Below the pieces are notes generated by a model. The model saw only the letters and a program-made list of their open reading frames with translations. It had not been told where the DNA came from and did not search any database. The translations under genes and the position numbers were made by a program. Below are positions 22,061 through 60,683 of a DNA stretch of 64,000 bases, piece by piece. The stretch comes from Tubulanus polymorphus (lineage: Eukaryota; Animalia; Nemertea). Each line of letters opens with the position of its first letter. Position 1 is the first letter of the stretch. The stretch spans positions 15,624,001 to 15,688,000 of the forward strand of contig NC_134025.1 in the NCBI RefSeq assembly GCF_964204645.1, written 5' to 3'.

Positions 22061-22145
22061 AGTAATTGGAAGATGTGGGTTTCAGATCAGAGTACTAGAT
22101 TACTAGACACCACTCATCACCACAAGTAATTTTTTTTCCTTATAA

Positions 22146-25100
22146 ATGGGAGAGAGTGAGTACCAGACAGAAAACAATAATGTTAATAAAAATCAATATT
22201 ATTGTCCATATTGTAAAAAATACATCGATAAATCTAATAAATCTAAACATGAAAAATCTTCAAATCATATAAAAAATGTAATAGATTTTGAAACTCCAGA
22301 AAATTCCAATGAAAGAAAAGAACGATTAGAAAATATGAATGTGGATGAAATAAAATGTGAAGTTTGTAATGAATTTATAGTAAAAAGGAATTATAATAGA
22401 CATCTCGAATCACAAAAACACCATCAAAATTTGAGTAATAATGTTTTAGGAAAAGATTATTTTGATGATAAACCTCAAAAAGTAAAAAAACCAACTTCAA
22501 AAACTAAATCCATTTCAAATAAACCTTACGTGGAAAATGTTAGAAATTATATTGATTCACTAGAAATAAAAGATACAATTGAAATATTAGAAACATTACA
22601 TAGTAAAATTGGTCCTGCAGCTATTATATTTAGATTCTTTAAAGGAACAACAATAGAAGATTATAGTAAATTTAATGAAATAATAGAAAAAATACTAGAT
22701 TTGATAACAGATGTTGAATATCCAAAAATTAGAATCTCTGGGAAAGTAAGTTTTATAAAGTCAGAAGAAAAAATGAATTATAATATTCAAACACACTCTG
22801 AAGAAATAATTTCAAAAACACAAATATTAGAGAAGTTAGAAAAAATATTTAATAAATTTAAACGTCATATTGAAGAAAGATATTTTGAGGGTTCTGGCTT
22901 AACATTGAACGAAATTATATATTTAGATTTAAATGTTTATAATACAAAAAGGAATAAAACATCAAAAACTAATAAAATGTTTAAAAATGATTCAAACTTT
23001 ACAACAGAAAAGGATATTAAAGCATCATCTTATATTAAATTACTATTTACAACAAAAGCAGTAATAAATGTTCAAAATGAAGATAATAAATGTTTTCTAT
23101 GGTCAATTATTAGTTGCTTACATCCAACACAGGAAAATGTTTGTAGAATAACAGATTATCGGAAATATGAAACATTATATAAAATTGATCAATATCCAGT
23201 AACTATAAAAATGATACCCAAAATAGAAAAAATTAATAATTTAAAAATAAATGTATTCGAATTAATGCAATTACCAAAGACAAAAGGTGAAAATATTAAA
23301 GATTATACATTGGAAGCTTTATATTTAACAGAATATTATGATGATGAAAATGCTATAGATTTGTTATATTATAAAAAAGATGAAAATGAACATTATATGT
23401 GGTTAAAACAAATTGATTTATTCTTTAGAACAGAAAGTGATCATCATCGTAAAATTTATCTATGTAGAAAATGTTTATCTAAATTTATGACTGAGAATAC
23501 ATTATTAAAACATAAAGAATTATGTGATAATAAAGATTTTTGTAAATTAATAATGCCAACAGAAAAAGATTATAAATTGAAATTTACTAATCATAAATTT
23601 AAGAATATTGATCCATTTGTAATTTATGGGGATTTTGAATCGTTGAATAAAGAATTAACTGATCAAGATAGGAAAGAAATATATAACAAAAAGCAATTAT
23701 TAAAATCAATGGATAAAGGAAATGAATTAAATGAAGACACAATACAAGACCCACCAATTATAAATACAATTAAAAAAGTTCATCAAAGAGCTGCTGCTTA
23801 TGGAATTTATATAAAATCAAATTATCCCGAATTATATGAAAGTCAATATATTTCTTTTAGAGGTGAAGATGTAGATGATTTTTGTGACAAAATGATTGAA
23901 TTAGAAAGTGATTTTGCAAAATTATTAAACAAAAATAAAAGAATAGTCATGACAAAAGAAGATGAAATCGATTTTAATTATGCAACTCATTGTTGTTATT
24001 GTGAAAAACGTTTTTATTCATTTGATAAAAAAGTTAGAGATCATAATCATTTAAATTCTAAATATCGTGGAGCTGCTCATGAAGATTGCAATTTACAAGC
24101 TAAGAAAGTTAATTTCGTACCAATATTATTTCATAATTTATCAGGCTATGATACCCATCTATTTATAAAACAATTATCGGGAAAATTGGGCGCAATTAAT
24201 CAAGAAATAGAAGAATATAATGCTATGAATGGTGTAAATGTAAGAAAATATGATTTTAAACTATTAGCTAAAACATCTGAAAATTATATTTCATTTCAAT
24301 TTGGTTGCATTAGATTTTTAGATTCTTATAGATTTCTAGCAAGTTCATTAGATAATCTATCAAAAAGTTTAGTTGATAATGATTTTGTTATAACTCGATA
24401 TTATTATCCAAATGAACAAGATTTTAAATTATTGAGATATAAAGGCGCAATTCCTTATTCATTTTATAAAACGCACAATGATTTTAATGTAACAGAATTA
24501 TTAAAAGATCAATTTTATGATCAATTAAAAGAGGAGTATGTGAAAGACGAAGTGTTTAATAGAACATTAAATATTTGGAACCATTTTAAGATGAAAAATC
24601 ATGGCGAATTAGTTGATTTGTATTTAAAATCAGATGTTATGATATTGGCTGACATATTTGAAAAATTTAGAGAAGTTAATTTGAATCATTTTAATGTTGA
24701 TCCTTGTTATTGCTACTCTAGTCCTGGTTTAACCTGGCAATGTGGTTTAAAATATACAAATGTAGAATTAGATTTATTAAAAGAACCAGATATGGTTTTA
24801 TTATTTGAAAAATCAATTAGAGGTGGAATTAGTGGTGTTATGGGAGATAGATATTTTAAAGCAAATGATGAATGTAAATTATTATATATTGACGCCAATA
24901 ATTTATATGGTTGGGCAATGATGCAACCTCAACCATATAAAAATTTTATATTAACAGAAGTTGAAAATGATGATAAAACTAATTGGGAAAGCGCAATTAT
25001 GAGTTTAGAAGATGAAGCACCAATTGGTTATTTCTTTGTAGTTGATTTAGAATATCCTGAAAATATAAAGTTTAAAACAAGAAACTTACCTTATTGCCCA

Positions 25101-27217
25101 GAACATTTAACTGTAGATGATAGTTATTTAAGTGAATACCAGAAGAAAATAAAACCGAAAGATCATGTTTTTACAGAAAAATTAATACCTAATCAAAATA
25201 ATAAATACAATTATATTGTTCATTATAGAATGTTAACATTTTATCTAAAACAAGGAATGAAATTAAAGAAAGTACATAGATATATTGAATTTAATCAATC
25301 GAAGTGGTTAGAAAAATATATAGATTTCAATACTCAGCAGAGAACCATATCAAAAACAGATTTTGAAAAAGATTTCTTCAAATTAATGAATAATAGTTTT
25401 TATGGTAAAACATGTGAAAATATTAGAAATAGAAATGATATTGAATTAGTAAATAATTCTGAAAGATTAAGACATTTACAATCAAGTCCTAGATATTTAG
25501 GAAATAAAAGATTTGAAGATTATTTAACAGCAGTTTAATTAAAAAGAACGTCAATGAAATTTAATAAACCTATATTCATTGGTTCAACTGTTTTAGAAGT
25601 ATCAAAATTATTAATGTATGATTTTTATTATAATGTTTTACAACCACTTTTTGGGGAAAAGCATATTGAAATATTATATTTTGATTCTGTAACAGCTGAC
25701 ACCCCAATATTATTAAAATGTAATGATAAAATATTGATAAGAAGAATTTCAGAAATAATTCCAAAACAAAATGAATGTTATATTTCATATGGAGAAAAAG
25801 AATTAATACAAATAAATGGTTTAATGGACAAGAAATGGATGGAAAAAATTAAAGAATATTATTAGGCATAAAACAAATAAGAAAATCTATAGAGTTAGAA
25901 CTAAATTAGGATTTGTAGATGTTACAGAAGATCATAGTTTAATTAAACGAAATGGTGATGAAATAAAACCAACTGATATAAAAATTGGAGATGAATTATT
26001 ACATAAAAGATTTTTCCAAAGAATGAATCATATGTCATTTGATGAAATAATTGATAATATTTATAATATAGAACCCGAAACATTAGAAGAAAAAGAATAT
26101 TTTATCAAAGGATTTTTCATGGGTGATGGTTCAGCAGGTGTGTATAATTATGTTTGGGGTAATAAATATTGTTGGTATTATTGAATAAAGTTGGTTGTTT
26201 ATGCAATCAAGACTTGAAATTATTAGAAAGAATTAAGAAATTCTGTGAAGAAGTTTATTCACATAAAACATTCAAAATCATAGATGTTATGAAATCATCG
26301 CAATGTTATAGAATGCATGTGAATAATCCTAAAGATTTTGCTATAAAATATAATGACAAATTCTATATTCATGCAATAGTGTAAGTAATACTTCAACTAA
26401 AGAAAAGATAGTTCCAGATTATGTATTAAAAGCAAAAAATAATTTAAGAAAATGGTTCTTCATTGGATTCTACGCAGCCGATGGTACTAAAAGTTTCAAA
26501 AACCGCAAAACAATATCTTTAGCTCAAAAAGGAAAAGTTGCTATATCAGGATTAAATATATTATGCAATTCATTAGGCTTTAATATGAATATTGGATTGA
26601 TTAAATCTAAACCAAATTGCTTTAATTTAAGCCATGTAGAAAATGAGTTAACTGAAGAAGTTAAAGATTTATTTGAAATATATAACCCAACAGATTATGT
26701 TTATGATTTATCAACTGAAGATGGTACATTTAACTGTGGATTTCCATTAATAGCAGTCAATACTGACGCCTACATACTAAAAATCAAGACAAATGACATA
26801 ACAAAAGACTTAAAAACATTAAAACATCATTTTGATTTTAGCAATTATCCCAAAGATCATGAACTATTTAGCAATGATAATAAAAAGATTCCTGGTAAGT
26901 TTAAAGATGAATTAGGGGGTGATGAAATGATTGAATTTGTTGGGATAAGAAGTAAAATGTATAGTTACAGAACAAAAGATCATGAAGCTAAAAAGTTAAA
27001 AGGAATAACAAAACATGTGGTTGATAAACATATAGAATTTCAAGATTATATAAAGTGTTTATATAAATCAATTGTAATGAAACACAAAATGAATTGTTTA
27101 AGATCAGAAGATCATGAGATGTACATTAATGAAGTTGAAAAAACTAGTTTAAATCCATTTGATGATAAAAGGCATATTTTAGATGATGGTATAAAAACAT
27201 TACCTTATGGTCATTAA
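22146..27217 (+). pseudogene. polB: Protein-primed family B DNA polymerase (ZnF, putative TP, vOTU-like, exonuclease with EndoVII-like insert, polymerase) interrupted by an intein
   Basis: DNKCFLWSI/HYMW (OTU-like), [48 protein letters not shown]-[intein]-TD, PGKFKDE; nonsense codon at 25536. Confidence 0.92.
25686..26761 (+). mobile_element. Intein with a LAGLIDADG homing endonuclease (PolB motif-C site), frameshifted
   Basis: Block A SVTADTP; block B VDVTEDHSL (~25915-25941); blocks C/E FIKGFFMGDGS (26101) and FFIGFYAADGT (~26456); block F YVYDLSTEDGTF; C-terminal IAVN with +1 Thr; absent from the homologous site at 46498/46499. Confidence 0.93.
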
Positions 27218-27272: not shown

Positions 27273-28060
27273 TTAATTGTTCAGGTTCTTCTTCCATTCC
27301 ATTTTCTCATTTAAATAAAGTTCTATCTTGTTCCACATTTCATCTCGCTCTCTTTGTTTCTTTTTGTTTGTTAATTCATCAAATGGAATTATAATATCTA
27401 TGTTTAAATAATTTACAATCTTATTTAAAAAGAATTCATAATTAATTGAATCTGTTATTCTATTTTCCAAATGATACATTAATATTTGTGTAAATATTTT
27501 TTTTATATTTTCCATATCTTCTTCTGTTAATTTAGGTTTTTCATGATAATCGTTAAATAATAAATATAAATACCTTTTCTTTTGTTTTGTGTTAAATTTT
27601 GACGGAATAATTGTTTTTATAATATCTTTTTTAGTTATTTCACCATTTTTATTTTCTATTATTTTCATTTTTTCAAGCCATTGCTTATATTCTGGTGTAT
27701 GATCTTCTATAGAAAATATTTTAAAAATTTCATCAAGATAATTTAATTTTGGTTCTATGAGAAAATCTCTAGTTTTTTCTTCACCCAATACATTCTTTTG
27801 CCATCCACATTCATTACAAAATAACACAGTACCTTCTTGTCTAAAAGGTCGCATAACTAAATTGTGGACATTTTCGTTTATAATTTATTGGTAATAGATC
27901 TTCATTTAGCTCCTGGTATTTTCTTACGTTTTCTTTATGTTTTATTGTTCTATTATGTAGATTTGAATTACATGTTGTAATAATCAATTTACAATATTTA
28001 CAATAATATGTTTTTCTTGTTAATTCGTTATATTGTTTTTCTAACTTTTCAACTGTTTCA
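27273..28060 (-). pseudogene. Poxvirus/NCLDV late transcription factor VLTF3 (A2)-like protein with N-terminal zinc finger and zinc ribbon
   Basis: CPQ(F)...CNECG zinc ribbon across a frameshift at ~27850; C-terminal PKLTEEDMENIKKIFTQI...INYEFFLNKI...KKKQRERDEMWNKI resembles the VLTF3 pattern. Confidence 0.6.
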
Positions 28061-28161
28061 AATCATTGTTTTCTCGCGTTATTTTGGTTTTGTCGTTTTG
28101 TCGTAATGTCGCCCTCATTTGCATATTCGTGTTTTTTTTATCTTATCAGCCACCATACTAA

Positions 28162-34526: not shown

Positions 34527-34599
<73 letters not shown>

Positions 34600-42236: not shown

Positions 42237-42369
42237 GTGAGTATCCATGCCCACCACCTTCCCGTACACAGTAGGCTACGCCTATACTAAGTCTTGTATT
42301 GTGCTCGTCAGAAAAAAAAAGATTCCGGCTACTACAATCACAGGGGCTCGTATCATAAGTTTGGGGGTG

Positions 42370-42778
42370 AGTAATAGGGGTAATGGGCTTTCAAATCAAA
42401 GGTCGAACGGTCGAGCTTATTAAAAACAAAACATTAAAAGTAATTTAAAACTATAATATATTTTCATAACCGTGTGCATTTTATATTATAACTAAATATT
42501 TATTCTAAGATATTAATAATTCAAATTTTAAAAGCATATTGTATTAAATCAATTGGTCGCTCCGCTTCGCTACCGCTCCACTCCGCGACCGATTGATTTA
42601 TTTACAATACACAAATTCATATAATCAAATATATTTTAATAATAATAATTATTCTATTATTCAACTGAAATGCACACGGTTTTGAAAATATATTATAGTT
42701 TTAAATTACTTTTAATATTTGTTTTTAATGAACTCGACCATTCAACCTTTAACCTGAAAGCCCATTACCCCTATTACT
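42370..42778. repeat. Left terminal imperfect palindrome (409-nt hairpin)
   Basis: AGTAATAGGGGTAATGGGCTTTCA...TGAAAGCCCATTACCCCTATTACT; apex AATTGGTCGC-loop-GCGACCGATT at ~42551-42594. Confidence 0.92.
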
Positions 42779-43010: not shown

Positions 43011-46000
43011 ATGGAAGCAAATAAGTACTACTGTCCAACATGTAATATCAATATACATAAATCCCAAAAATCAAGACACAATAAAACTAAAATACATTTA
43101 GAGAATAAATTGAAATTAGAATATAAGGATGATATATTAGAAACTAAATTAGAAGAATTAAAGAATGAAAAAGAAACATATAAATGTGATACATGTAATC
43201 AATCATTCAGTGATAAAAGATATTATAAAGAACATTTAAAATCTAAAAGTCATATTGGAAATATGAACAATGATATTTTAGGTGAGGATTATTTTGATAA
43301 AGATAATGATAAGAAACAGAAGACAATTAAAAGCATAAAAAATAAATTAAACAATAGAAGACCATACATGGAAGATGTAAGAAAATATATTAATTTATTG
43401 GATAATAAAAAAGATATAGAGACAACCGAAGCATTTAAAAGTGATATTGGTCCAGCAGCTATTGAGTTTAAATTTCATAAAGGAAAAACATTAGAAGAAA
43501 ATAAAAAACATTTAGAAAATATGAAAGAAATAATAAAAATAATAACTGATGTTGAATATCCTAAAATAAGTATTTCATCAAAAGTTAAATTCATAAAATC
43601 TGAAGATAAACCAATATATAATATAAATTCTCATTCACAACATATTATTTCAAAACAATATATAGATGATAACTTAGATAAATGTTATAATGAAGTAAAA
43701 ACTAAAATAGAAGAGAAATATTTTGATGGATCTGGTTTAATATTTGATGAAATAATATTTATGACTTTACATGTTTATAACACAAAATATAATAAGTTAA
43801 CTAAATCAAAACCAATTGATGAAAATAATGTATCATATTATAAAGAACCAGATATTGAAGCATCAAGTAATATTAAACTACCATTTAAAACTAATGCTGT
43901 AATAAATGGTCAAAATTTTGATGATAAATGTTTTCTATGGGCTATAATAAGTTGTTTACATCCTGCAATTTATAATATTTGTAGATTAACTCATTATAAA
44001 CCATTTGAAAATAATTATAAGATAGATAAGTATCCTGTTAGAATTAAAAACGTCCCAAAGATAGAAAGAGATAATAATTTAAGAATAAATGATTGATTTA
44101 ATCAAATTACCAAATACAAAAGGTAACAACATAAAACATTATACATTAGAACCTTTATACCTATCAAAAGATTATGATTCAAATGATGTTATAGATATAC
44201 TATATTATGCGAATCATTATATGTGGATTAAACAAATCGATTTATTTTTTAAATCAGAAAATGATCACCATAAAATATATCTTTGTAGAAAATGTTTACA
44301 TAGATTCAGTAATGAAAGTACATTATTAAATCATAAACAATTATGTGAAAATCATGATTATTGTAAATTAGTTTTACCAAATGAAAAGGATAAAATATTA
44401 GAATTCAAAAAATATGATTACAAAAATAAAGTACCATTTGTAATATATGGAGATTTTGAATCATTAAATAAAGAATTAACTGATCAAGATAGAAAAGAAA
44501 TATATTATAAAAGAAAAAAATTAAATTCTAATGAAAATGATTTTTCAGATGAACCACCAATAACAAATACAATTAAAAAGATCAGCTGCTGCTTTCGGGT
44601 TATATATTAAATCTGATTATCCAGAACTAATTGAAAGTGAATATTATAATTACAGAAATGAAAATGTTATCAATCATTTTTGTGACTTATTAATTGAATA
44701 TGAAATAGGATTTAGTAAATTATTGAATACAAATATAGAAATTATAATGACAGAAGAAGATAAAGAAGAATTTGCGTTTGCAGATAAATGTTATTATTGT
44801 GAAAAGATATTTAATTATAAAGATAAAAAAGTAAGAGACCATGATCATTTGAATGGAAAGTTTAGAGGCGCTGCACATGAGAATTGTAACTTACAAGCTA
44901 AGAAAATCAATTTTGTACCAGTTATATTTCATAATCTATCAGGATATGATGCACATTTATTTATCAAACAGTTATGTCATAAAATAGAAGAAATTAATAA
45001 TGAAATAGAAAGATTAAATTCAAATAGATCAAAAGATAAAATACCAACTCATAAATTTAGACTGTTAGCTAAAACATCTGAGAATTATATATCATTCCAA
45101 TTTGAGTGTTTAAGATTTATAGATTCATATAGATTTTTAAATAGTTCATTAGATAACTTATCAAAATCATTAGTTGATGATGAATTAAAAATATTAAAAC
45201 AACACTACCCAAATAATGATGATTTTCAATTAATGAGATATAAAGGAGCAATTCCATATTCTTTCTATAAAAATCATAATGATTTTAACATAACTGAATT
45301 ATTGAAAGAACAATTCTATGATGAATTAAAAAATGAATATGTTAAAGATGAAGTATATAATAGAACATTGAATATTTGGAATCATTTCAAAATAGAAAAT
45401 CATGGGCAATTAGTAGATTTATATTTAAAATCAGATGTATTATTATTAACCGATATATTCGAAAGGTTTAGAGATGTAAACCTAAAATATTTCAATATTG
45501 ATCCTTGTCATTGTTATTCTAGCCCAGGTTTAACATGGGATTGTGGATTAAAATTAACAGATATAAAAATGGATTTGTTAACAAATATAGATCAATTATT
45601 ATTATTTGAAAAATCTATAAGAGGAGGAGTTTCAGGTGTATTAGGTGATAGATATTTCAATGTAAATGATAACCCTGGATATAAGTTATTATATATAGAT
45701 GCAAATAATTTGTATGGTTGGGCAATGATGGAACCACAACCTTATGGAGTATTTGAATTAACTGAAGTTTTACAGAATGAAAATAATGATACATTTGATT
45801 GGAAGAAAAGAATCCTAGATATTGCAGATGATTCAGATACTGGTTACTTCTTTCTTGTAGATTTAGAATATCCTGAACATATTAAATTTAAATCTAGAAA
45901 TCTAGCATACTGTCCAGAACATAAAACTGTTACTCATGAAGAATTATCAAATTATCAAAAAAGAATTAAACCCGAAAATCTTATTCATACAGAAAAGTTA

Positions 46001-47104
46001 ATGGTAACTCAAGAAGATAAATATACTTATGTAGTACATTATAGAATGTTAAAGTTTTATCTAAAACAAGGAATGGTTCTAAAAAAAGTACATAGATATA
46101 TTTCATTTAGTCAATCTAAGTGGTTAGAAAAATATATAGATTTTAACACCAAACAGAGAACTGAAGCTAAAACTGATTTCGAGAAAGATTTCTTCAAGTT
46201 AATGAATAATGCATTCTATGGTAAGACTTGTGAAAATATTAGTTATAATGATATTGAGTTAGTTAGTAATGGTAAAAGAATTAGACATTTACAAGTATAT
46301 CCTAAGTTCATTGGTAACAGAATATTTGATGAAAATTTAGCCGCAGTTAAAATGAGAAGAACATCCATGAAATTTAATAAACCAATCTATGTTGGCGCTT
46401 CAGTTTTAGAATTATCAAAATTACTAATGTATGAATTCTATTATAATGTATTACAACCACTTTTTGGAGAAATACATATAGAAATATTATATTTTGATAC
46501 AGATGCTTACATATTAAAGATAAAAACTAATAACATAACTGATGATTTAAAAACATTAAAACATCATTTTGATTTCAGTAACTATCCTAGAAATCATGAA
46601 TTGTTTAGCAATGATAATAAAAAAGTTCCCGGTAAATTCAAAGATGAATTAGGTGGTGAAGAAATGATTGAATTCATCGGTATTAGATCTAAAATGTATT
46701 CATATAAAACTTAAGAACATGAAGCTAAAAAGTTAAAAGGAATAACCAAAAGTGTAGTAGAAAAGAATATTAATTTCAAAGATTACATCAATTGTATATT
46801 CAATGAAGAAGTTAGAAAACATAAGATGAAATGTTTAAGATCTGAAGATCATGAAATGTTTATTGAAGAAATTGAAAAGATAAGTCTAAACCCATTTGAT
46901 GGTAAAAGATATATTTTAGATGATGGAATTCATACAGTTGCTTATGGTTGCAATTTAGATGAATACTTAAAATTTAAAAGAGAAGAAACAAAAGAGAACG
47001 AGATAATGAAAAGAATTCTAACGTGTTCATCAAATTTTAATAAAAATATGTATTATAAATGGAGAGTAAACAAACACACAGTGAGAACAATAAATCATTT
47101 CTAG
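43011..47104 (+). pseudogene. polB: Protein-primed family B DNA polymerase, intein-free allele (frameshifts at ~44090 and ~44580, stop at 46712)
   Basis: ZnF; DDKCFLWAI; IYGDFES; [19 protein letters not shown]; YIDANNLYG; [10 protein letters not shown]; uninterrupted YFDTD. Confidence 0.93.
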
Positions 47105-47412
47105 ATAGAATAAAAGATACTTCAAATGTCAAATCAGTAGATTATAAATTTAAGAAGTTAAAAGAATTAATAATCCATAAGAAATATCTAATTACAAATA
47201 TTGATACAGTAACTAACAAATATGGAGATAAATTAGTTATACACGTAGAATATGAAGGATTAAAAGGAAATACATATAAATTCAGAACATATTTACCGGA
47301 TAGATTTCATAGATTATCAAGTGAAGACTTAGAAGAATTATGTTCTGGTTGTTTCTATTTCGTATACAAAGGTAAGAATGAAAAAGGGCACCATGAAATA
47401 GATTTCGAATAA
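47059..47412 (+). CDS. Small Polinton protein, possible OB-fold ssDNA-binding protein
   Basis: FKKLKEL...Y.I...VTNKYG...TYLPDRF pattern directly downstream of polB. Confidence 0.5.
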   Translation: MESKQTHSENNKSFLDRIKDTSNVKSVDYKFKKLKELIIHKKYLITNIDTVTNKYGDKLVIHVEYEGLKGNTYKFRTYLPDRFHRLSSEDLEELCSGCFYFVYKGKNEKGHHEIDFE

Positions 47413-47429: not shown

Positions 47430-48188
47430 ATGGTAGAATTAAAAGAATACAGAATATTTGTAGATTCTAGAAAACTTACAAATTATAAATCTCATAATTT
47501 ACTAGTTCAATTAGATAGAGAATTCAAGAATTGTGTAGATTTAAAATTAGTTAATATAAGTTTATGTAATTCTTTTTACAATGTATTGGATAAAACTGTT
47601 GAACATAGAGTCTTTTTAATTCATGATAGAAATAAAAGTAAATGGTTTCATCTTTATCTTAAACCAGGATTATATAATTTAGATACATTAGCGCAGGAAA
47701 TTAATAGAAGAGCTCGGTTGAAAATGGGTGCATCTGCTGGATTTGGATTAAGACTGATTAAAAGTGATAGCTCCGATAAAATAAGAATGAAATTAGGTAA
47801 TGAAGATCAACATCAATTTCTAGTTAGAAAACCTTTAGCTAAAATTTTAGGAATAACCCCAGATGTAAGGATACGCAATGCTGATGCTCCACCAAATATA
47901 ATGCCTTTTACACACTTTTATATTTATTGCAAATTAATCGATCCTACAAAAACATTCGAAGCAACTAAAGATATAACTTGTAATTCTGGTTTAATTAACA
48001 TTTTACCATTGAAGAATGTTAAAGAATTTGGAACGCAAATAAATTATAATTTAACAGAATGTGATTTCAAACCATGCATTCCTCGTTTTAATAATTTTAA
48101 ATTAGAAATTAGAAATCACAATGGATACTTAATTGATTTAAATAATTTCCCTGTAATTTATGAATTAGTTATAAGATGTAGAGAGTAA
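47430..48188 (+). CDS. Minor capsid protein (penton, single jelly-roll)
   Basis: IFVDSR...VQLDRE...LVNISLCNSFYNV, LKPGLY, FYIYCKLI, LEIRNHNGYLIDLN...YELVI. Confidence 0.75.
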   Translation: MVELKEYRIFVDSRKLTNYKSHNLLVQLDREFKNCVDLKLVNISLCNSFYNVLDKTVEHRVFLIHDRNKSKWFHLYLKPGLYNLDTLAQEINRRARLKMGASAGFGLRLIKSDSSDKIRMKLGNEDQHQFLVRKPLAKILGITPDVRIRNADAPPNIMPFTHFYIYCKLIDPTKTFEATKDITCNSGLINILPLKNVKEFGTQINYNLTECDFKPCIPRFNNFKLEIRNHNGYLIDLNNFPVIYELVIRCRE

Positions 48189-48205
48189 TTTTTTTCACTA
48201 TATAA

Positions 48206-48550
48206 ATGAATATAACTGTTGGACCGAGTATATGTTTTGGTTTTGATTTTAAACATGGCAAAGAAATGAGAATTAAACTAAATGATGTAATTACTGATAT
48301 AAAAAGTAAATCATTTAACAATTCATCAATGATTAATAAAGAAAATTATAATAAAGAAAAAGTAATTGATTTAATTAAATCACCTTTAGAATATTATGAT
48401 TTAAATGAAGATGGAATTATCGATGATATTAAAAACATATTATCCAAAATATATGATAATCATAAAAGTAGTAATGAAATAAATGTTGAATTAATCATCA
48501 CTAAGATAACTAAATATTTTGATGATAGTAATTTTTTGATAAATAAATGA
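48206..48550 (+). CDS. Hypothetical Polinton protein
   Basis: Intact ORF preceded by the T-run/TAAATG motif. Confidence 0.6.
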   Translation: MNITVGPSICFGFDFKHGKEMRIKLNDVITDIKSKSFNNSSMINKENYNKEKVIDLIKSPLEYYDLNEDGIIDDIKNILSKIYDNHKSSNEINVELIITKITKYFDDSNFLINK

Positions 48551-48768
48551 GTGATAATAAGTGGATAATAACTGGATTATATAATGGCGCATTACTATCA
48601 GTTGGAACTGTTGGTTATTCAATGGTTTTAAAAAAAGTATTCAAAATGGGAAGTGTTAATGTTGATAGATTTGATATAAATGATATTTTAAAATCAACAT
48701 TAGCAGTTACTTTATCTAATTTAACTATTGATTATTTAGAAAAACAAAAATATATTCCTCCCATATAA
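48547..48768 (+). CDS. Small hydrophobic virion-type protein
   Basis: 73 aa, two hydrophobic helices, TAAATG start. Confidence 0.6.
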   Translation: MSDNKWIITGLYNGALLSVGTVGYSMVLKKVFKMGSVNVDRFDINDILKSTLAVTLSNLTIDYLEKQKYIPPI

Positions 48769-48792
48769 ATGTGTAATTTTTTTACTAAATAA

Positions 48793-49215
48793 ATGGCTTC
48801 TGCAATTATAACTATTATAGGATCGGCAATTGTTAACGCTTTAACATTTACTGGTGGCGGTTATTTATTTAAGCATATTGATAAAAATGGTTCATTAACA
48901 GAACAAAAAAGACATAACTTAGCATTAGAGAAATATAATAAAGCAGCAGAAGAATATAGAGGAAAGAGGCAAAACTATATGGATTACATTAATAAAGAAT
49001 TATATGATCTGAAGATTTCACATAGAGATTTTCAATCAGTTGATGATGCAATGAGTTTATATAACGCAGAAACAAATAAAGAAAAATTACATCTACATAA
49101 ACCTACAATATCAGATTATTATACCCCAAGTAATGAACAGAAGAAGTATGAAATAATTTGGATTTTAGGCGGAACTGTTATTGTTATATTTGTAGCGTAT
49201 AAGTTTACTAATTAG
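48793..49215 (+). CDS. Polinton membrane-associated protein
   Basis: MASAIITIIGSAIVNALTFTGGGYLF...EQKRHNLALE; C-terminal transmembrane segment. Confidence 0.65.
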   Translation: MASAIITIIGSAIVNALTFTGGGYLFKHIDKNGSLTEQKRHNLALEKYNKAAEEYRGKRQNYMDYINKELYDLKISHRDFQSVDDAMSLYNAETNKEKLHLHKPTISDYYTPSNEQKKYEIIWILGGTVIVIFVAYKFTN

Positions 49216-49236
49216 TAATTTTTTTTTGCTAAATAA

Positions 49237-49662
49237 ATGGATGATAATATTGATATTATTCCTCATGATATAAATAAAACTGAATTAAAAACATATTTAG
49301 AAAAACAAATATTAGAATTTGAAAGTGACTTAAAAGTTAAAAAGAAAAAATATTTAAAAAGTAAAATTATATATTATTTTATTATTCGTGATTCAGTTAC
49401 AATTAGTTCTGTAATAACATTTCTAGCAATATTCAGTCCAATAACACCATTAGCTATATCAATTGGTGTATTAGGATTAAGTTCAAGTGTTTTAACCGGT
49501 ATAAGTTCAAAATTAAATATAAAAAGTAATAAAGAAAAAATTAAAACTAATATAAAAGAAATTAATAAATTAAAGAATACACTAGATTATATAATAAGTT
49601 TAAATGGTCATATAACAGTTGAAGAACAAGATATATTATTAAAAGAATTAGTTAATTATTAA
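49237..49662 (+). CDS. Two-TM coiled-coil protein
   Basis: Central hydrophobic hairpin flanked by Lys-rich coils. Confidence 0.6.
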   Translation: MDDNIDIIPHDINKTELKTYLEKQILEFESDLKVKKKKYLKSKIIYYFIIRDSVTISSVITFLAIFSPITPLAISIGVLGLSSSVLTGISSKLNIKSNKEKIKTNIKEINKLKNTLDYIISLNGHITVEEQDILLKELVNY

Positions 49663-49678
49663 TTTTTTAATTATATAA

Positions 49679-50960
49679 ATGGGGTTTCCAAAAGCTTTCC
49701 AATATAATAAATCAATTAAATATAATATTCCTGCAATAGATTTTAAGAAAAATATTACATATAGAAATGAAGTTTTAAATTCATTAATTGATTTATATAT
49801 TTATGTTACTGAAAGTAATAATTTTCACGTAAAGATGGAAAATATATTTCATGTGTATACAATTTATTTCAAAAATTTAAAATCTAATATAAAGTATTGG
49901 CAGAACCAATTAAATTTTGCTGTTTATTGCGCAACAACAGGATGTGGAATAAGTTGGAATGATCATTTAAACAAACCAAGTTTACCATTGATGGTATTAC
50001 TTTTTAGATTTCATATATATTTTCAAATAAAATTAATATTAGATGAATTAGAATGTCCTTTACCAAGTTCAAAATATTTTAAAGAATTGAATAATAATAT
50101 TAATTTTCCTAAGTTTTATAAAATATGTAATGAATTTAATATTAATTCAAATAAAGATTTTAGAGCAAAAATTGGAACAATGGGTGGATTAGGAATATTA
50201 TATACTAAAGAATTTGGAAAAATAATGACAAATTCAGATATAAGAACACTAAACTGGAATGAATTACCAAAATATTATAATAATGTACAACAACAAAATA
50301 ATAATGGTTAGGTTAATTTCATTTTAGAAAATAGTGAAGGTGTTACTGTAGCTGGTATACAAAGAATAAATCAATCTATTAGAACTTATTTGATATGTAT
50401 TTTAGGTGCGCAAGTTGAAACAAGATCCCCAATAATTGGAAATGATAACACTTCATTCGATGCGCAGAAACAATTCAAAGTATTATTTGAAGATTCAATT
50501 CATAATGATAAAAATAGATCTATTCCAGAAAACATTGTAAGATATCAAAATTATTTAGATAAATCACATATTAGATTAAATTATTGTATAGGCCCTAATC
50601 TATTAATTATTTCTAATGTATTAAAGATGGGAAATATAATTGGTTACAATAATCTAATTAAAACTGCAACAATAAATAATTCATTTGGATTAAATGATAT
50701 AAATAAAAAGATTATTACTGCTCCAAAATTAATTGAAGGTGAAAAAAATTAAAAACATATTCAATCAACAGAAACTAAAACTAATAATATTAAATTGAAT
50801 AATGATTCTAAAATAAAAGATTACAATACATCAGAAAATATTAGAACTGATAATATTCAACATGATATAATTAAACTAAATGATGATAATAAATCCCATG
50901 AAAATGCTAAATTAGCTTTAACTTGTATAGGAATTGTAATCGGAGGAATATTATATTTTA
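49679..50960 (+). pseudogene. Conserved Polinton protein (WQNQLNFAVYCATTGCG motif) interrupted by stops
   Basis: ORFs 49679-50311 and 50390-50752 are in the same frame, separated by a TAG; C-terminal transmembrane segment near 50910-50960. Confidence 0.65.
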
Positions 50961-50984
50961 AATTTTAATTTTTTTATTATTTTA

Positions 50985-52437
50985 ATGGCAGAAGGTGGAG
51001 GAGATTATGAAATGGAAAACAGGGGAAATAATGATGATGCCAATACTAACAATGATGATTATATGACTGCTGATACTAATATTGATAATGATAATGATAC
51101 AACATATAATTCTAATTTAGCAGAGAGTGGTTCTAAAGCCCCATCAACAGATGAACATGATAGAAGAACTAGATCGAGAATACCTATTGAAAATTTAGAC
51201 CAAGGTTTAGAAAGAGAAAATATAGAAAATTATGAATTTATGTATGATTTTCAACGTGTATTTAAAGATTCTGGATATAATATAAATGATAGAGGCGCCA
51301 GACGTTTAGTAAAAGAATTAAAGTTTTTAGATGGTGAATATTATTATAAATTGAAAGATGATTATTATATTAACATCTCTTAAAATTCAAGACAAAATAT
51401 TAGCAAAATCAACTTTGCTTAGGTTAGACCTATCTAAAATTAAAAGAATAAGAAATAGTAATGAACCAGAAGATGTAACACAAGAATTAATTGATAAAAA
51501 TGAAAATGTATTTAAACAAAGAATTAAAAAATTATTTGAAACAATCAAAGATAATCCAGAAGCAGAAACAACTTCCGAACAGAATAAAATTTTCAAAACT
51601 AGTAAACTTAAATCAAACACTGAAGTTCAAACTGAAAAACTTTTACCGAAGGGATTACTTGATTCAACAGATCAAGAAATAGAAGCTTTAAGTATGTTTT
51701 CTAAAAAAAACAATTAGAGAAATAATAAGTATACGAGATGAAGCTGATAAAATTGCACGCGAAGAACATATTAGATATAATAAAATTAAACCTTTAGAAA
51801 ATAAATTATTTGACACCAGAAAAGAATTAGAACAATTAAAATTAGATAGAGAATTTAAAGTTATTGAAGAAATTGAATTTAAAAAAAGAAATGCATATTT
51901 AGAAAAAGAAATTGATGATTTAGAATATAACATAGAATTTCAGAAAGAAAAAATGAAATTATTATTAAATCATATGATTATTGTATTAATAGATTAAAAG
52001 TTGTTGTTAAAGAGTTAATACTGAAACCAAATTCTGAAATATCACTAAAAGATAGAATAAAATTATTATTTAAGTTTGAAGGAATCACAATTCTTTCAAT
52101 TCTAACAGCTGTAACTATGTTATTTACAACAATTGGTTTAGCAATATCAAATTCTTTGAAATCTACTCCTACTCCCAATAAACCAGATAAACCTCCAAGC
52201 AATAATTCTATACAAGATAAAGTTAAGGATGGTTTAAAGAAATTAGCAAAATATTTATGGGAACTATCAAAGAAATCTGCTGCAGCATTACCAGGAGTTA
52301 TTGCATCAATTGTTGGTTTTATATTGAAATCTGCAGGAAACATTATTAACTTTGCTGCTGAACATATTATTTTATTTTTAATTACAGTTGTAAGTGCTAT
52401 TATTTTTGGATTAGTAAACATGATAAAAAATAAATGA
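50985..52437 (+). pseudogene. Coiled-coil protein with C-terminal amphipathic/TM helices (putative membrane-active virion protein), frameshifted
   Basis: Fragments 50985-51383, 51358-51717, ...DRIKLLFKFEGITILSILTA...LAKYLWELSKKSAAALPGVIASIVGFI. Confidence 0.6.
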
Positions 52438-52457
52438 TTAATTTTTTTGTTAAATAA

Positions 52458-53705
52458 AAGAGTGGGAGTTATATCAATCCTTCTAAGAATCATAGAATAT
52501 CTAATGCTATTAAAGCAGAAAGATCACATCATATAATTACACATAATCCTTCTAATATTAATCCTGATGAAACTTTATATGTTAGAATTCCTCGATTAAC
52601 ACAAAATACTTTTTATGTTCCAAATAGTAATTATTTATCAGCCGATATAAAAGTAATCGGTAATAATAATAATTATGTTGTTGATAATGTTGGAAGGTAT
52701 TTGATTAAAAAGTTAACAATAAAGATTGGTCCAGAAACCGTTTTCTCATTAGATGATTATAATTTATTTATGCATTATAAAGATTTATGGTTAACTAAAG
52801 AAAATAGAAATAATATGATATTTCAAGGCATCCAATCAGAAAACCAAAATAAATTAAGATCAGGAGCTAATGACGCAATAGCAACTCGCACCGCAGATAA
52901 TTTCATAAAAAAGATTTATGGAAGCAAATATAAAATTCCATTAGACTTTGAATTGATAAATAACAATGCACCTTTATATAAATATGCAATTCAAGAAGAT
53001 GTTATATTCGAAATAACATTTGTTCCTGTAAATGGAATTGTATTATCTAGCGTTGTTAAAGATATGGGTTATAAATTATCGAATATATGTTTAGAATATG
53101 ATACAGTAACTGATGAAAATATTTCAAGTATAATTCAAACTAAATACAATCAAGGATTTTCATTATTATATGATTATATTGATAAATTTAAAACTGTAAC
53201 TATTAATGCAAATGATGAAATTATTAATGAGAGTATTAACTTCCCAAGAAGATCTATTAAAGGTATATTAATATTTTTTACCATTGCAACATATACTAAT
53301 GGCGCAATAAATGTTGATAATTATTATAATCCTGAAATAACAAAAGTAGAAATAACTATCGAAGGAATAGCAAATAAAATATTTTGTCAAGGAATGAGAA
53401 TGATAGATCAGTGGCCAGAAATTAGAAAACATTTTATGAATGAAAAAGTAAAATCATCTGAAAATTGTAATATTAATCAAATTGATTATTATACCGGTAA
53501 TAAATATGCATTATGGTTAGATTTTAGAACAACAGAGGATAATTCATTACATGGTTCTGGAAAAAAATTACAAAATACAAAAGATGGAATACAATTATTC
53601 ATGACAAAGAATAAAGGAATCAAACATTTTAAAATGCATATTTATATTATATCTGACGCGCAATTAAATATTGTAAATTCTCAATTGAATAGTGTTATGT
53701 ATTAG
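52458..53705 (+). CDS. Major capsid protein (double jelly-roll); start codon apparently mutated ATG to AAG
   Basis: Open frame from 52458: SYINPSKNHR...THNPSNINPDETLYVRIPRL...VDNVGRYLIKK...YKIPLDF...YKLSNICLEYD...LWLDFRT...LHGSG. Confidence 0.8.
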   Translation, partial: KSGSYINPSKNHRISNAIKAERSHHIITHNPSNINPDETLYVRIPRLTQNTFYVPNSNYLSADIKVIGNNNNYVVDNVGRYLIKKLTIKIGPETVFSLDDYNLFMHYKDLWLTKENRNNMIFQGIQSENQNKLRSGANDAIATRTADNFIKKIYGSKYKIPLDFELINNNAPLYKYAIQEDVIFEITFVPVNGIVLSSVVKDMGYKLSNICLEYDTVTDENISSIIQTKYNQGFSLLYDYIDKFKTVTINANDEIINESINFPRRSIKGILIFFTIATYTNGAINVDNYYNPEITKVEITIEGIANKIFCQGMRMIDQWPEIRKHFMNEKVKSSENCNINQIDYYTGNKYALWLDFRTTEDNSLHGSGKKLQNTKDGIQLFMTKNKGIKHFKMHIYIISDAQLNIVNSQLNSVMY

Positions 53706-53737
53706 AATTTCAACTTTAATAAAAATTTATATAATAA

Positions 53738-54259
53738 ATGGAAGGAGGTAAAGTATATAAACATATTCCATACATCGATACACATGCAAATAATGATGGT
53801 TTATATTATGTGATACCTTGTAATATAGCTTTGATATTTGATCCTATTTTCAAAATTTATGAAACTAAACTAATAGAAATAGATAATAATAAAAGTGAAG
53901 TTGTTGATGATTTAAGTAATGTAATACCTTCTACATCTAATAATGTAATACCTACTACATCTAATAATGTAACACCTACTACATCTAATAATGTAATACC
54001 TTCTACATCTAATAATGTAATACCTTCTACATCTAATAATGAAATAATATTAAATTATGGTGAAAATAAAAATTATTGTGGATATTGTAATGGTGAATTT
54101 TCAAACGCTCCATCTAATTGGAATAAACATATGAATACAAAGGTACACATTACTAATGCGGTAGAAAGGATGAAAAAGTATAAAAATAAAACAACTATTG
54201 ACGATGATACGGTAGAGAATTTGAATAAATTGTTAGGGTCTGATAGTGAAAGTGATTAA
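53738..54259 (+). CDS. Zinc-finger protein with five 9-aa (SNNVIPSTS-type) repeats
   Basis: 27-bp tandem repeats at ~53913-54040; CGYC...HMNTKVH. Confidence 0.7.
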   Translation: MEGGKVYKHIPYIDTHANNDGLYYVIPCNIALIFDPIFKIYETKLIEIDNNKSEVVDDLSNVIPSTSNNVIPTTSNNVTPTTSNNVIPSTSNNVIPSTSNNEIILNYGENKNYCGYCNGEFSNAPSNWNKHMNTKVHITNAVERMKKYKNKTTIDDDTVENLNKLLGSDSESD

Positions 54260-54672: not shown

Positions 54673-55284
54673 TTATTTTATATATTTATATTCATATGGA
54701 AATTGTAGTCTCAGTAATAATTTTGAACCTTTATTATTCTTTAATTTATTCATATATTCATCATGTTATTCAGTAGGTATAATTTGATTTTCTTCCAATG
54801 ATTGTTGCATAGATTTTCTATCTTTGTTATAAAATAAAACTAGAAATCTAATGTTTTCTCTAAAGTCTTTAACAATTGAATTATATTTTTGATTTAAAAC
54901 CCATGTTGTAATCCCAAAATGTCTCCCAGAGAAAGCTAGATAACATAACTCACTTTCTCTAACTTTTGAATCATGTAAATTTGCGCAATCATCTATGATA
55001 AATAATGTAGTTGATCCTTTATAAGTATCAATTGCTATTTTTATACAATTATCTAAATTTTCTTTTACTGTTTTAGGATTTAATATAATAAACTTTTTTA
55101 TCTTAACTATATCTCTATTATATGTTTTATTCATTTCATAAGTAGGACAAAATAATATTATATTATTAAAATGATTCTTATAAATAGTTTCTAACAAGTC
55201 TAATATGAAATGTGTTTTACCACAATTGGTTACTCCAGTAACTTACATATTATGCGGTTCAAATATAAATAAATCTTTATTCAT
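54673..55284 (-). pseudogene. A32/FtsK-like DNA packaging ATPase
   Basis: Walker A GVTNCGKT, Walker B FIIDD, GRH, NQKY; in-frame stops just before Walker A and at 54766. Confidence 0.88.
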
Positions 55285-56376
55285 TTATTCTTTTAATTTT
55301 ACTAGATAAAATCCATTCATTAAATTTATCATCATATCCCTATATTTCACCAAAGAATACTTTTTTACTTTAAGAGTTTTTGTTTTCAATACTTTTTCTA
55401 TTTTGTATTCTATTTCATCTGGATTTGGTACAAGTGATAATTCTTGTTCATAGAAATATCCTAATATTTCTTCATCTTTTAGATCTTCTAGTTTATAAAC
55501 AAATGGTTTAGTTAATATTATCTTTTTAATCTTGAATATTTCTTCTGTAAAATTTGGGGTATAACCTTTATAAAATGTTTTTCTATATTTAGATATTCTA
55601 ACGTGTTGTCCAATTTTAAATTTAGGTTCTCCGAAATCATGTGTAACAAATGCTCCATATAAATTATTCCAAACTATTTCTGAATTATCTTCTTTTCTAG
55701 CTTGTATAGGTTTCATACCAATACTTGAATGTTTAGAATTATTATAACCTTTCACTAAATCATCTAACACATCGATATATTTATATGTTTCATTAGCAGT
55801 AAAATATTTCCACATTCTAGTTTTCAATGTTTTATTAAATCTTTCTATAATAGATGCTTTTTTATCTGAATGTGTTGAAAAATAATCTACATCGTTATCA
55901 GATAATAGTTTTTTAAAATGTTTGTTATAAAATTCCTTACCTTCATCAAATTGTATCTTATCTGGAATAGCTTCTTTAAATATATTCTTAAAAGCGTTTG
56001 TAACTTCTATTCCGGTTTTATTTTTGATTGGAATTGACCATGCGTATCGACTGAATATATCTATAACATTTAATATCCAGAAATATCCTTTGTTGTATTC
56101 CTCTAAGTTCTTCATGTCAATTAAATCTGCTTGCCATTGTTAATCGATATATGAAACCATAACTTTTCTTATTAAATAAGTTTTATCCATTTTCTTGTGG
56201 ATTTGATATGTTGGTTGATTTGGTAACCATGATTTCAACTCACTATATTTTATATTTTCATTATCAGATTTAATTTTACTCCATAATTCTGAAACGTTAG
56301 AATATGATACTTCACTTTCTGGGTTATAATATAACTCTCTTAAATATTGTTCTTTTTTCGTCTTATTTTAATCCAT
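55285..56376 (-). pseudogene. Retroviral-like (rve) integrase with C-terminal chromodomain
   Basis: YYNP..., WQADLIDM, IDIFSRYAW, QFDEGKEF, IERFNKTLK, HSSIGMKP, chromo YKIEKVL; two nonsense codons in the N-terminal part. Confidence 0.9.
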
Positions 56377-56735
56377 TAATAATAGTTTAGATTTAGTTTC
56401 AATGGCTTTATGATTTGACTTATTTTCTGGTATAATAGGTTTATTGTCATTGGAATCATATTTATCATCAGATTTGAATTTTGATTTATATATTACACCG
56501 GATAATATGATAATTGTTACTAATCCAATTGTAATATATAATTTATAATTACTTCCAGCATTAGAAGAATCAGATGGATTATTACTTGAATCAATATCAG
56601 CTAAAGTCTGTGATTCATTTATATCAGTTAATTTCTTTGTCTTAGCTTTTTTAATTCTGAAGATCTTTTACCTAATTCTCTTGCCCATTTAATTTGTTTC
56701 TCGGATCTAGCCTTTTTCTTAACTCCATCACTCAT
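56377..56735 (-). pseudogene. Small basic protein with a transmembrane segment, frameshifted
   Basis: MSDGVKKKARSEKQIKWARELGKRS... then YITIGLVTIIILSGVI. Confidence 0.5.
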
Positions 56736-57330
56736 TTATTTTAGTTAATTTTTGTTCTGATTCATTTTCTGTTTCACTGTTTGGTTGTAGTACATCTGTT
56801 TCGTTCTTACCTGATTTATATTCCATAGGCTTGATATTCGAAAATGTAATGACGCCAGTAGAAATTAATGTCATAACCGATCCTAATTGAAATGAAGCAT
56901 AACCAACCCATTTTTGTAATTCAGTCATAACTAAATAGTCATTTTTCAAATCACTATATAATTTATTTTCATCATTAATTGGTATTAACTGGTTACATAA
57001 CTTAGAATAACATTTGACAATACCATCTGAAATAGAATCATTTATTCTAGCTGATCTTGCTTCTTCATAAATCTTAAAATATTTTATTACTTTATCGGGT
57101 TTCATAGAGTCTAATTCTTGAAAAGTAATAATTCTATTTAAAAACTCTTTAGTTTTTCCACCGGCAATCAATAGTTCTAGATGATGCTTACAATATAAAT
57201 AGTATTCATAATCTATATTACAATTAACTTGAGCACAATTAGTTACAACTGTATCTTTATTATCACATATACCCAAATCATCTAATGTTTTTTCAATATC
57301 AATACTATTCTTATTAGTTTTCTTTGACAT
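56728..57330 (-). CDS. Conserved hypothetical Polinton protein
   Basis: Intact 200-aa ORF (LELLIAGGKTKEFL...DLKNDYLV) with the T-run/TAAATG motif. Confidence 0.65.
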   Translation of the reverse strand: MSKKTNKNSIDIEKTLDDLGICDNKDTVVTNCAQVNCNIDYEYYLYCKHHLELLIAGGKTKEFLNRIITFQELDSMKPDKVIKYFKIYEEARSARINDSISDGIVKCYSKLCNQLIPINDENKLYSDLKNDYLVMTELQKWVGYASFQLGSVMTLISTGVITFSNIKPMEYKSGKNETDVLQPNSETENESEQKLTKINE

Positions 57331-57631: not shown

Positions 57632-57847
57632 TCATTTCGGATCCTTGATATCAAATTCCTCAACGTATTGTTCATTATTTGGATCATTGTTCCATTGATC
57701 AATAAATTTCTTTGCATTTGTTAACTGTTCTAAATATAACTGTAAATCTAGTTTATTAGATTTGATTTGATTTTCTTTCTTTTCAAGAGGTCTTAAATTT
57801 TTCAAATTCCAAACAAGTTTTTTATTGTATTCATCATTCCTTTCCAT
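57632..57847 (-). pseudogene. Truncated duplicate of the HNH protein C-terminus
   Basis: YNKKLVWNLKNLRPLEKKENQIKSNKLDLQLYL is nearly identical to the end of 59621-60274. Confidence 0.8.
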
Positions 57848-58385: not shown

Positions 58386-58480
58386 TTAGTCAACAGTAAA
58401 CAATACAATATTAAAACAGATATATACAATCGGGATTACATTTTTGATATCTATATTACAAAGACCTTCAGTGTTATAAT

Positions 58481-59620: not shown

Positions 59621-60274
59621 TTAAGCTCCAACGTATTTTTCATTATGTGTTGAATTCCATAATTCAACAAATGTCTTTGCTTTATCCAGTTGATCTAAAT
59701 ATAACTGTAAATCTAGTTTATTAGATTTAATTATATTTTCTTTCTTTTCTAAAGGCCTTAAATTTTTCCAGTTCCATATTAGCTTCTTATTATAATCATC
59801 ACTCATGTCAAATTTAGAAATCGGCAACACATGATCAATATGAAAGTATTCACCATAATTATCTATATTCATTTTATCATCGAATTGATATATTATCCAT
59901 GATATGAAAAATTCATCTGAACAACCCAATAAATTAGATAGTGTTTCTGAATGCGTTTCTTTGTTGAATAATTGTGTTAATCTAGATCTTAAACATTGTT
60001 TTAATCTAAAATTAAGATCTGTTTGATATCTTTCTCTCATATATTCTGTCATATAATCATTATAAGCTTCTCTATTATCATCTCGATATTGTTTGGTATA
60101 TAGTTTAGTACAAGTTTTACAGCAATATTGAAAACCATCTTTGCTAATCTTACGCTTATTAAATTCTGTTATAGCTAATTTATCTATTTCACATTTAGAA
60201 CACTTCTTGTAGTATATGTTTATGACACCAGTGTTATTTGTAATATTGATAGTTTGTAGTTGTTCTGATTCCAT
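59621..60274 (-). CDS. HNH endonuclease of the type common in large DNA viruses
   Basis: N-terminal CSKC...CKTC; LLGCS...NYGEYFHIDHVLPISKFD...NWKNLRPL...EN..KSNK. Confidence 0.8.
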   Translation of the reverse strand: MESEQLQTINITNNTGVINIYYKKCSKCEIDKLAITEFNKRKISKDGFQYCCKTCTKLYTKQYRDDNREAYNDYMTEYMRERYQTDLNFRLKQCLRSRLTQLFNKETHSETLSNLLGCSDEFFISWIIYQFDDKMNIDNYGEYFHIDHVLPISKFDMSDDYNKKLIWNWKNLRPLEKKENIIKSNKLDLQLYLDQLDKAKTFVELWNSTHNEKYVGA

Positions 60275-60495
60275 TTATTATACATATTTTTTTTACTAAA
60301 TTGATTTTAGAAGTTCAATGATTTATATCATGTATTATTTCAATCACACTTTACTTACACTTTTAATGTTTAAAATCTAACTCATACAAATATGAATATT
60401 GAAATAATGTTGTAGATATATACTTTTATATTGAATAATTTGTCAATTTAAATGTTATTCATTTATATTTTATTCATGTATATGAATGTTTTAAG
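60275..60495. repeat. Right subterminal inverted repeat
   Basis: Reverse complement of 42779-43010 with indels. Confidence 0.88.
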
Positions 60496-60683
60496 AGTAA
60501 TAGGGGTAATACGCATTCAGGCTAAAGGTTGAAGGGGCGAGTGAGTAAAAAATGAAAATAACAATAATTTCCAGTTGAATTAGGAGTGTGCGCGACTAAT
60601 TCAACTGGAAATTATTGTTATTTTCATTTTTTACAAGCTCGACCCTTCGACCTTTGGCCTGAAAGCCTATTACCCCTATTACT
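60496..60683. repeat. Right terminal imperfect palindrome (188-nt hairpin)
   Basis: AGTAATAGGGGTAAT...ATTACCCCTATTACT; long perfect inner stem AAAATAACAATAATTTCCAGTTGAATTAG / CTAATTCAACTGGAAATTATTGTTATTTT. Confidence 0.92.

Follow-up and report, generated by a model that had tools for sequence, protein, structure and literature searches.

Two decayed Polinton copies in a nemertean genome with a candidate homing intein and poxvirus-like start signals

Are Polintons in an animal chromosome transcribed by their host, or do they borrow the RNA polymerase of a large DNA virus infecting the same cell? The question is raised by two elements, here called A and B, in a 64,000-nt stretch of the genome of the nemertean Tubulanus polymorphus (NC_134025.1, positions 15,624,001 to 15,688,000; hereafter the window, numbered from its first letter). 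Both are AT-rich islands (24-25% GC, against 40% in the flanks) in surroundings rich in repeats. B (42370-60683, 18.3 kb) is a full-length but decayed Polinton with the ends AGTAAT and ATTACT, and many of its genes are broken. A (22061 to ~28060), also broken, is a left-end fragment holding a protein-primed DNA polymerase (pPolB) and a VLTF3-like gene. The polymerases of A and B are 67% identical, which makes the two elements members of sister subfamilies.

The copy B in the window is not an isolated one. In raw reads of another study (one short-read run, 1,934 Mb read), depth on B was 48-1,044 per bin. B is a member of a family at many insertion sites, because 1001 reads leave it exactly at 42370 and 817 at 60683, into mixed flanks (agreement 0.34 and 0.35, respectively). 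Most reads (72,762 of 74,559) are only 90-99% alike.

The explanation that we favor, with a confidence that falls a little short of even, is that A and B are decayed copies of two sister Polinton-virus subfamilies, that their genes are likely transcribed with the RNA polymerase of a large cytoplasmic DNA virus present in the same cell, and that a homing intein is likely colonizing their pPolB. An initial annotation of the window had seen several independent signals of such a virus in the two related elements. Most of the parts are real, but they are split: the intein and the VLTF3-like gene are in A, which has no terminal hairpin, and B has the hairpins, the capsid and an HNH nuclease and lacks the intein and VLTF3. 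No single element is seen with all of the signals.

The intein in the polymerase of A

The intein is the strongest result of the analysis. It interrupts the pPolB of A at the junctions YFD|SVTADTP and LIAVN|TDA, and shows a Ser start, TxxH in block B, an Asn end before Thr, the conserved insertion site and two LAGLIDADG motifs. The penultimate residue is Val in A, Ser in the related polymerase P0165 and His in another relative, P0172. The intein of A is broken into four reading-frame pieces, and the frame is open in P0165 and P0172.

Among 120 pPolB relatives recovered with the A polymerase as query, 4 carry an intein, unbroken or partial, in the position it has in A; 90 were empty and 26 were unscored. 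The five carriers are scattered within one pPolB clade, and each has an intein-less nearest or near relative. The A polymerase itself is 80-84% identical to the intein-less P0288 (the same as locus L008). Between A and P0165, the inteins, at 52-72% identity, resemble each other more than the polymerases do, at 53-59%. The cluster of P0172 comprises 136 members, on contigs of up to 1 Mb; among the 15 members listed, 7 have the intein, 5 are without it and 3 are fragments. Its upstream part is 94-99% identical, whereas divergence sets in at the site and continues downstream, as expected from co-conversion. Occupied and empty alleles thus occur among close kin, the pattern of a homing intein, and homing among Polintons appears well supported. 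Cleavage of empty pPolB alleles would fall to the LAGLIDADG domain, and the intein would then be copied into them.

A HMMER search with a 119-aa piece of the intein gave 1715 matches, of which the best 150 were examined. None of these 150 resembles the pPolB of B. The viral junction YxD|S..N|TD, located in the same motif of RNA-primed B polymerases, was present in 110 of the 123 matches of at least 500 aa among them, and all 16 scanned intein-match proteins contained PF00136. By best solved-structure match, the intein-bearing polymerases include delta-like, African swine fever virus (ASFV)-like (8YWG; 9 of 74 group with it) and T4-like phage polymerases; we take the delta-like match to denote the usual giant-virus type. 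A word-based search with the C-terminal half of the intein gave no match, and a metagenome scan with P0165 gave no loci. The site is presumably the motif-C site known as pol-c. Motif-C inteins of giant-virus-type and large-phage B polymerases have the same catalytic site, Ser start, Asn|Thr end and LAGLIDADG motifs as the intein of A, at 33-53% identity, but the host protein of the latter is the protein-primed polymerase of a Polinton.

In two trees, which exclude short inteins, 11 whose site is unclear and six nearly identical members of P0172, the pPolB inteins form one clade (support 1.0 and 99, respectively); exteins were grouped by BLAST. Both trees draw this clade inside the viral inteins, but its sister differs between them, and nesting within clades of nucleocytoplasmic large DNA viruses (NCLDV) is not established by the topology test given below. 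An ASFV-like donor, which appears in one of the two trees only, was considered and rejected.

The label of an NCLDV-type PolB intein is thus partly justified: the site is the same, and the nearest kin outside Polintons are in viral RNA-primed polymerases, but the closest kin of all lie in other Polintons, so the intein of A need not record a contact of A with a giant virus. An intein pool common to Polintons and large DNA viruses is supported by these comparisons; the intein may have entered Polintons once from the large-DNA-virus side of this pool, and then spread among them. No animal-virus donor was identified. If the hosts are animals, a homing intein spreading among chromosomal Polinton copies would be exceptional, and would mark encounters of Polintons with large DNA viruses.

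The homing pPolB intein is new within the literature searched, in which, with subscription journals and supplements outside the search, a Hint intein in the pPolB of a Polinton was not seen described. In one paper, intein invasions were only suggested, from homing-endonuclease inserts in polinton pPolBs (PMC11071308).

Two side observations concern other polymerases. Decayed pPolB-type intein fragments were present in P0001, P0017, P0041, P0048 and P0049, on ENA contigs of 34-624 kb, such that decay is also seen in another multi-copy family. P0002, P0003, P0019 and P0028 are large-virus-type polymerases with at least two inteins at different catalytic motifs.

Start signals, the VLTF3-like gene and the source of transcription

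TAAATG starts are the sole signal common to the A and B subfamilies. Of the 20 ORF starts called automatically in B, 10 are TAAATG, whereas the motif accounts for 7.4% of all ATGs (p 4.5e-7), and many of the remaining called starts are internal starts of broken genes. With starts listed by hand the count was 13 of 16, two of the 16 having been picked for the motif. Six kin loci show the motif at 17 of their 19 ORF starts (background 8%), and five pPolB loci of equal AT-richness at 4 of 51. The start element consists of an A- or T-run, a few bases, and then WATAAATG, and in seven B starts the T-run has T at -10. Intergenic spacers are 16-32 nt long, and in the divergent gene pairs of loci L009 and L010, two TAAATG starts lie within 26-28 bp.

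Poxvirus late promoters consist of TAAATG with T at -10, and intermediate promoters of TAAA with an A/T-rich core (PMC11980589); TAAA is read directly by the viral polymerase (PMC12917281). The start signals of B fit this late and intermediate, that is, post-replicative, consensus, and the polymerase of a helper virus would read TAAA(T) as an initiator in the manner of a poxvirus. No paper on TAAATG promoters in animal Polintons was found in the literature searched. The combination of strict pox-like starts and long fold-back ends, likely in an animal lineage, is new within the literature searched. Promoters of this kind, 25 nt long, would make the helper need of animal Polintons testable, and would predict the kind of virus to be sought in the host.

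The VLTF3-like gene reported in the initial annotation stands. Its ORF (27273-27884) obtained an ESM Atlas score of 0.96, with 218 of 256 features common to Pox_VLTF3 clusters, a recognition that lies below the threshold of the tool. The matched clusters are of 200-215 aa, and one of them is mostly Preplasmiviricota. There was no Pfam match, a word-based search gave no match, and scans of viral contigs with VLTF3 and its alignment gave no loci. Both pieces of the region in A match a single 697-aa ORF of L008, at the same position and with 47% identity. VLTF3 has been described in stony-coral polintoviruses, where it was ascribed to exchange with giant viruses (PMC11131425); these resemble A in having a VLTF3-like gene in an animal Polinton, and differ in that the available text of that paper mentions no intein, hairpin or HNH gene, all three of which are seen across A and B. 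In subfamily A, the VLTF3-like protein might tune the polymerase of the helper.

Because of the intein of large-DNA-virus kind in A, the fold-back ends in B and the poxvirus-like TAAATG starts, the lineage may borrow the transcription machinery of a large virus. Several results weigh against such a dependence. No gene of a helper virus was recognized in the window. Every group shows enrichment of a looser TAAA lying up to 10 nt from the start (214 of 593 starts in 87 other loci, against 9.5%), including 12 of 22 starts in four loci with the same virion module, and the motif may therefore reflect a start context general to Polintons. The strict form, TAAATG, turns up in the unrelated loci L003 and L045 as well. 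A division into early and late promoter classes was tried and rejected, the split between A-run and T-run not tracking gene class (Fisher p 0.13). Coding-strand T-runs are depleted just as much in 12 loci that have no TAAATG, and no group shows a depletion of AATAAA (codon-shuffle tests). A and its closest relative L008, the carriers of VLTF3, are without the fold-back. Inteins related to that of A are also found in T4-like phage polymerases; the pPolB inteins have an ASFV-like sister in one tree (0.79) and a delta-like sister in the other, and the approximately unbiased test does not reject a tree in which the viral motif-C inteins stay together (p 0.43).

Of the transcription signals proposed in the initial annotation, TAAATG is enriched and poxvirus-like. 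Depletion of T5NT or T-runs and retention of AATAAA, tried as giant-virus signals, were rejected, since the same codon-shuffle tests do not set the family apart.

A rival explanation, which we consider somewhat less probable and still a serious contender, is that of an autonomous nuclear Polinton transcribed by host Pol II. TAAATG would then be a sharpened form of a general start context (a compact core promoter, a translation context, or the AATAAA of the upstream gene), and the intein and the VLTF3-like gene would be old acquisitions passed among Polintons. This agrees with the enrichment of loose TAAA in every group, with the presence of AATAAA 6-22 nt after 8 of 17 B stops, with the Polinton affiliation of the closest inteins, with the earlier report of VLTF3 in coral polintoviruses (PMC11131425), and with the many insertion sites that the family has reached. 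It does not explain why terminus-proximal first genes and divergent pairs, which have no upstream stop, start at TAAATG, nor why AT-rich controls are without the strict motif, and a late transcription factor together with the common intein site points to some history in cells bearing large viruses. Helper-dependent transcription remains the best reading of these data, and one that we hold tentatively, at not quite an even chance.

Terminal fold-backs and known helper-linked elements

At each end of B, the sequence can fold back as far as the last base. The terminal inverted repeats (TIRs) are ~81% identical, yet each end keeps its own complementarity. The hairpin is kept in the diverged locus L007 (z -13.4), and a GGTCGA-like double motif is conserved 32-47 nt from the end. 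Folding of the 3' end onto an internal copy is found in B and L007, and is not found in L008 or at the left terminus of A (fold z -0.10). Of the two elements, only B has terminal hairpins of the pox- and parvovirus-like kind listed in the initial annotation. Among the short reads, no site was found at which many molecules begin or end, though such ends may not enter libraries.

The fold-back geometry allows self-priming or a local duplex origin. Protein priming was likely kept as well, because terminal-protein- and vOTU-like motifs, as we presume these families to be labeled, remain in the pPolB. Replication would then be protein-primed, and the fold-back would let the displaced strand rebuild a duplex origin or prime itself. 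Palindromes that lie in the TIRs next to the target duplication, together with a model of hairpin priming, have been described for Halocafeteria virophages as well as PLVs (Polinton-like viruses; 10.64898/2026.07.28.741278), which are like B in this respect but have a protist host, 52-nt palindromes and mostly no pPolB, compared with 188-409 nt and a pPolB in B. The alternative that the hairpins are functionless by-products of template switching at the ends is improbable. It would account for the different loop lengths (409 and 188 nt overall at the two ends), for their variation among reads (joint 60558-60621), and for the hairpin-less A and L008; however, the arms stay complementary although the sequences of B-left, B-right and L007 differ, and locus L004 begins in a matching inner arm.

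Elements linked to a helper virus are known from other settings. Entomopoxvirus-associated Polinton-like viruses (PMC11296320) are animal-associated and have been proposed, with shared genes, as hyperparasites of a cytoplasmic large virus. They differ in having been found in occlusion bodies and in encoding a cysteine protease, and promoters are not discussed in the available text; A and B are known from sequence, with no helper seen. Mavirus and EMALE provirophages and Tetraselmis PLVs (10.1101/2025.10.09.676808) are, like A and B, integrated and AT-rich, with promoters that could fit a helper's. Unlike A and B, they have a demonstrated helper, induction and protection.

That A and B represent a widespread animal Polinton lineage of virophages of an unseen poxvirus- or asfarvirus-like virus, with TAAATG promoters, fold-back replication and a giant-virus intein brought into animal chromosomes and now homing between copies, is a rather unlikely generalization. 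The full claim of the initial annotation, in which the host retains the element as an endogenous satellite that can be induced as an antiviral against a giant virus of animals, is very unlikely: it can draw on the protist precedent of mavirus-like elements and Tetraselmis PLVs (10.1101/2025.10.09.676808), on high copy number and on promoter resemblance, but both copies are broken, most reads show the divergence given above, and selfish spread explains the copy number equally well. A host benefit is not implied by the explanation that we favor, and a protective antiviral role of the lineage is unsupported.

Gene content, insertion site and neighboring sequence

The features of A and B are collected in Table 1. 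B is a Polinton in all core features except the protease. Its length falls within the 15-20 kb of Polintons, and its AGT..ACT ends and the 6-bp duplication GGGGTG agree with what we take to be Polinton hallmarks, AG..CT ends and a 6-bp duplication. With Maverick/Polinton elements (PMC8502044, 10.64898/2026.06.19.733378) B has in common a pPolB, an RVE integrase, an A32 ATPase, a double-jelly-roll (DJR) capsid, a length of ~18 kb, TIRs and a 6-bp duplication; unlike them, it has no adenain and has fold-back termini, A has a true Hint intein in its pPolB, and there are strict TAAATG starts. The target site of B is a near-perfect palindromic host repeat of ~110 bp, resembling a miniature inverted-repeat transposable element (window 42337-42369 and 60684-60767).

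Table 1. Features of elements A and B in the window.
Feature	Position	Strand	Basis or remark
A, left terminus AGTAAT...	22061..22145	+	85 bp to polymerase start; terminal motif common to B, L007, L008
A, protein-primed PolB; zinc fingers at the N-terminus, motifs of terminal-protein/vOTU-like kind	22146..27217	+	PF03175 E 2e-17; motifs by pattern
A, intein: Hint and two LAGLIDADG motifs, catalytic YxD|TD site	25686..26761	+	52-72% by piece to unbroken P0165 pPolB intein
A, VLTF3-like gene (27273-27884) and upstream zinc-finger piece (27841-28062), cut where A ends	27273..28062	-	ESM Atlas
B, left target-site duplication GGGGTG	42364..42369	+	sequence; inside palindromic host repeat continuing at 60684-60767
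B, left terminal fold-back	42370..42778	.	fold z -21.4; terminal AGTAAT...TCGAG motif recurs inverted inside; inverted repeat to ~43013
B, protein-primed PolB, four pieces, motif C empty (YFDTDA)	43011..47104	+	PF03175 E 3e-15
B, conserved small gene travelling with pPolB	47059..47412	+	63-64% to L004 and L007
B, likely minor capsid protein, inferred	47430..48188	+	position; 22% to L010 ORF, E 9e-12
B, block of conserved genes without known function, several with hydrophobic stretches, two broken, T-run before each	48206..52437	+	homologs of most in L010, L048
B, major capsid protein of double-jelly-roll type	52458..53705	+	Foldseek best matches are DJR capsids, E 1e-8 (PDB), 1e-11 (BFVD)
B, zinc-finger ORF with 24-bp repeat	53738..54259	+	
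B, A32-like packaging ATPase, broken near start	54766..55284	-	Pox_A32 E 1e-10
B, RVE integrase, broken	55285..56367	-	rve E 8e-9; 87% to L005
B, two conserved genes without known function (56368-56735, 56728-57330)	56368..57330	-	second 67% identical to L005
B, short copy of HNH gene 3' end, own TAAATG in front	57632..57847	-	sequence
B, HNH / endonuclease VII-type gene	59621..60274	-	phrog_1035 E 2e-16
B, right terminal fold-back, ends ...ATTACT	60496..60683	.	fold z -21.1
B, right target-site duplication GGGGTG	60684..60689	+	sequence

The pPolB of A is broken by a stop near 25537, besides the breaks inside the intein, and A ends before an integrase would be reached. About 10 genes of B are without assignment, most with homologs in loci L005, L010 or L048; the ORF at 49679 gave no ESM Atlas match. 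The assignment of the major capsid protein (MCP) comes from a low-confidence structural model (pLDDT 53), but its leading matches are DJR capsids; the protein is 34-38% identical to those of L041, L048 and L061, and a viral-contig scan with it gave no loci. The capsid and packaging module, annotated as full, is confirmed for the MCP and the A32 ATPase; only gene position and weak similarity identify the minor capsid protein, whose predicted model has a pLDDT of 32. No RNA polymerase was recognized among the B genes.

The HNH nuclease is likewise a real HNH/EndoVII gene, but not of a distinctly large-virus type. It is 46-60% identical to genes of L004 and L007, and 25-44% to those on phage and giant-virus contigs; 3 of 48 matching loci are labeled as giant-virus metagenome-assembled genomes, and 56 phage records match. 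The gene was rejected as a giant-virus-specific signal, its nearest relatives being Polinton kin, and phages being otherwise as close as giant viruses.

An adenain protease was not found in B by Pfam search to E 0.1 or by motif scan, several ORFs remaining without assignment, in agreement with the earlier report of its absence; the adenain-type cysteine protease of group 1 Maverick-Polintons, or adintoviruses in the strict sense, is thus not seen. This absence does not discriminate: L048, with the same virion module as B, is also without adenain and has 1 of 11 strict TAAATG starts, and L003 and L046 combine TAAATG with adenain-like motifs. Loss of adenain was rejected as a giant-virus signal on these grounds. 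Of the proposed link to large DNA viruses, the intein, the VLTF3-like gene and, by resemblance, the promoters are left, the HNH gene, T-run depletion and missing adenain not being discriminating. In L003, a Polinton with 7 of 7 TAAATG starts, an adenain-like domain is fused to an RVE-chromodomain integrase (2740-4251).

The right arm of B (57626-60293) resembles a site of variable cassettes that follows the promoter in the TIR. Other copies are rearranged here, with read joints from 60293 back to 57869 and from 57942 to 57626; a further joint in other copies connects 43122 to 57747 on the opposite strand. The longest non-coding stretch of B, at 58050-58430, contains three GC-richer copies of a unit with GGACCGGTTATTGCGC (58099, 58250 and 58365), possibly a regulatory array.

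Outside A and B, the region 13228-21267 contains two reverse-transcriptase ORFs, which we take to be Penelope-like, located within a 2.1-kb perfect inverted pair that has 804-bp tandem repeats. The retroelements of the window would suit an animal host: RVT_1 matches were obtained among the window proteins (Pfam), and the window presumably also contains LINE-like remnants.

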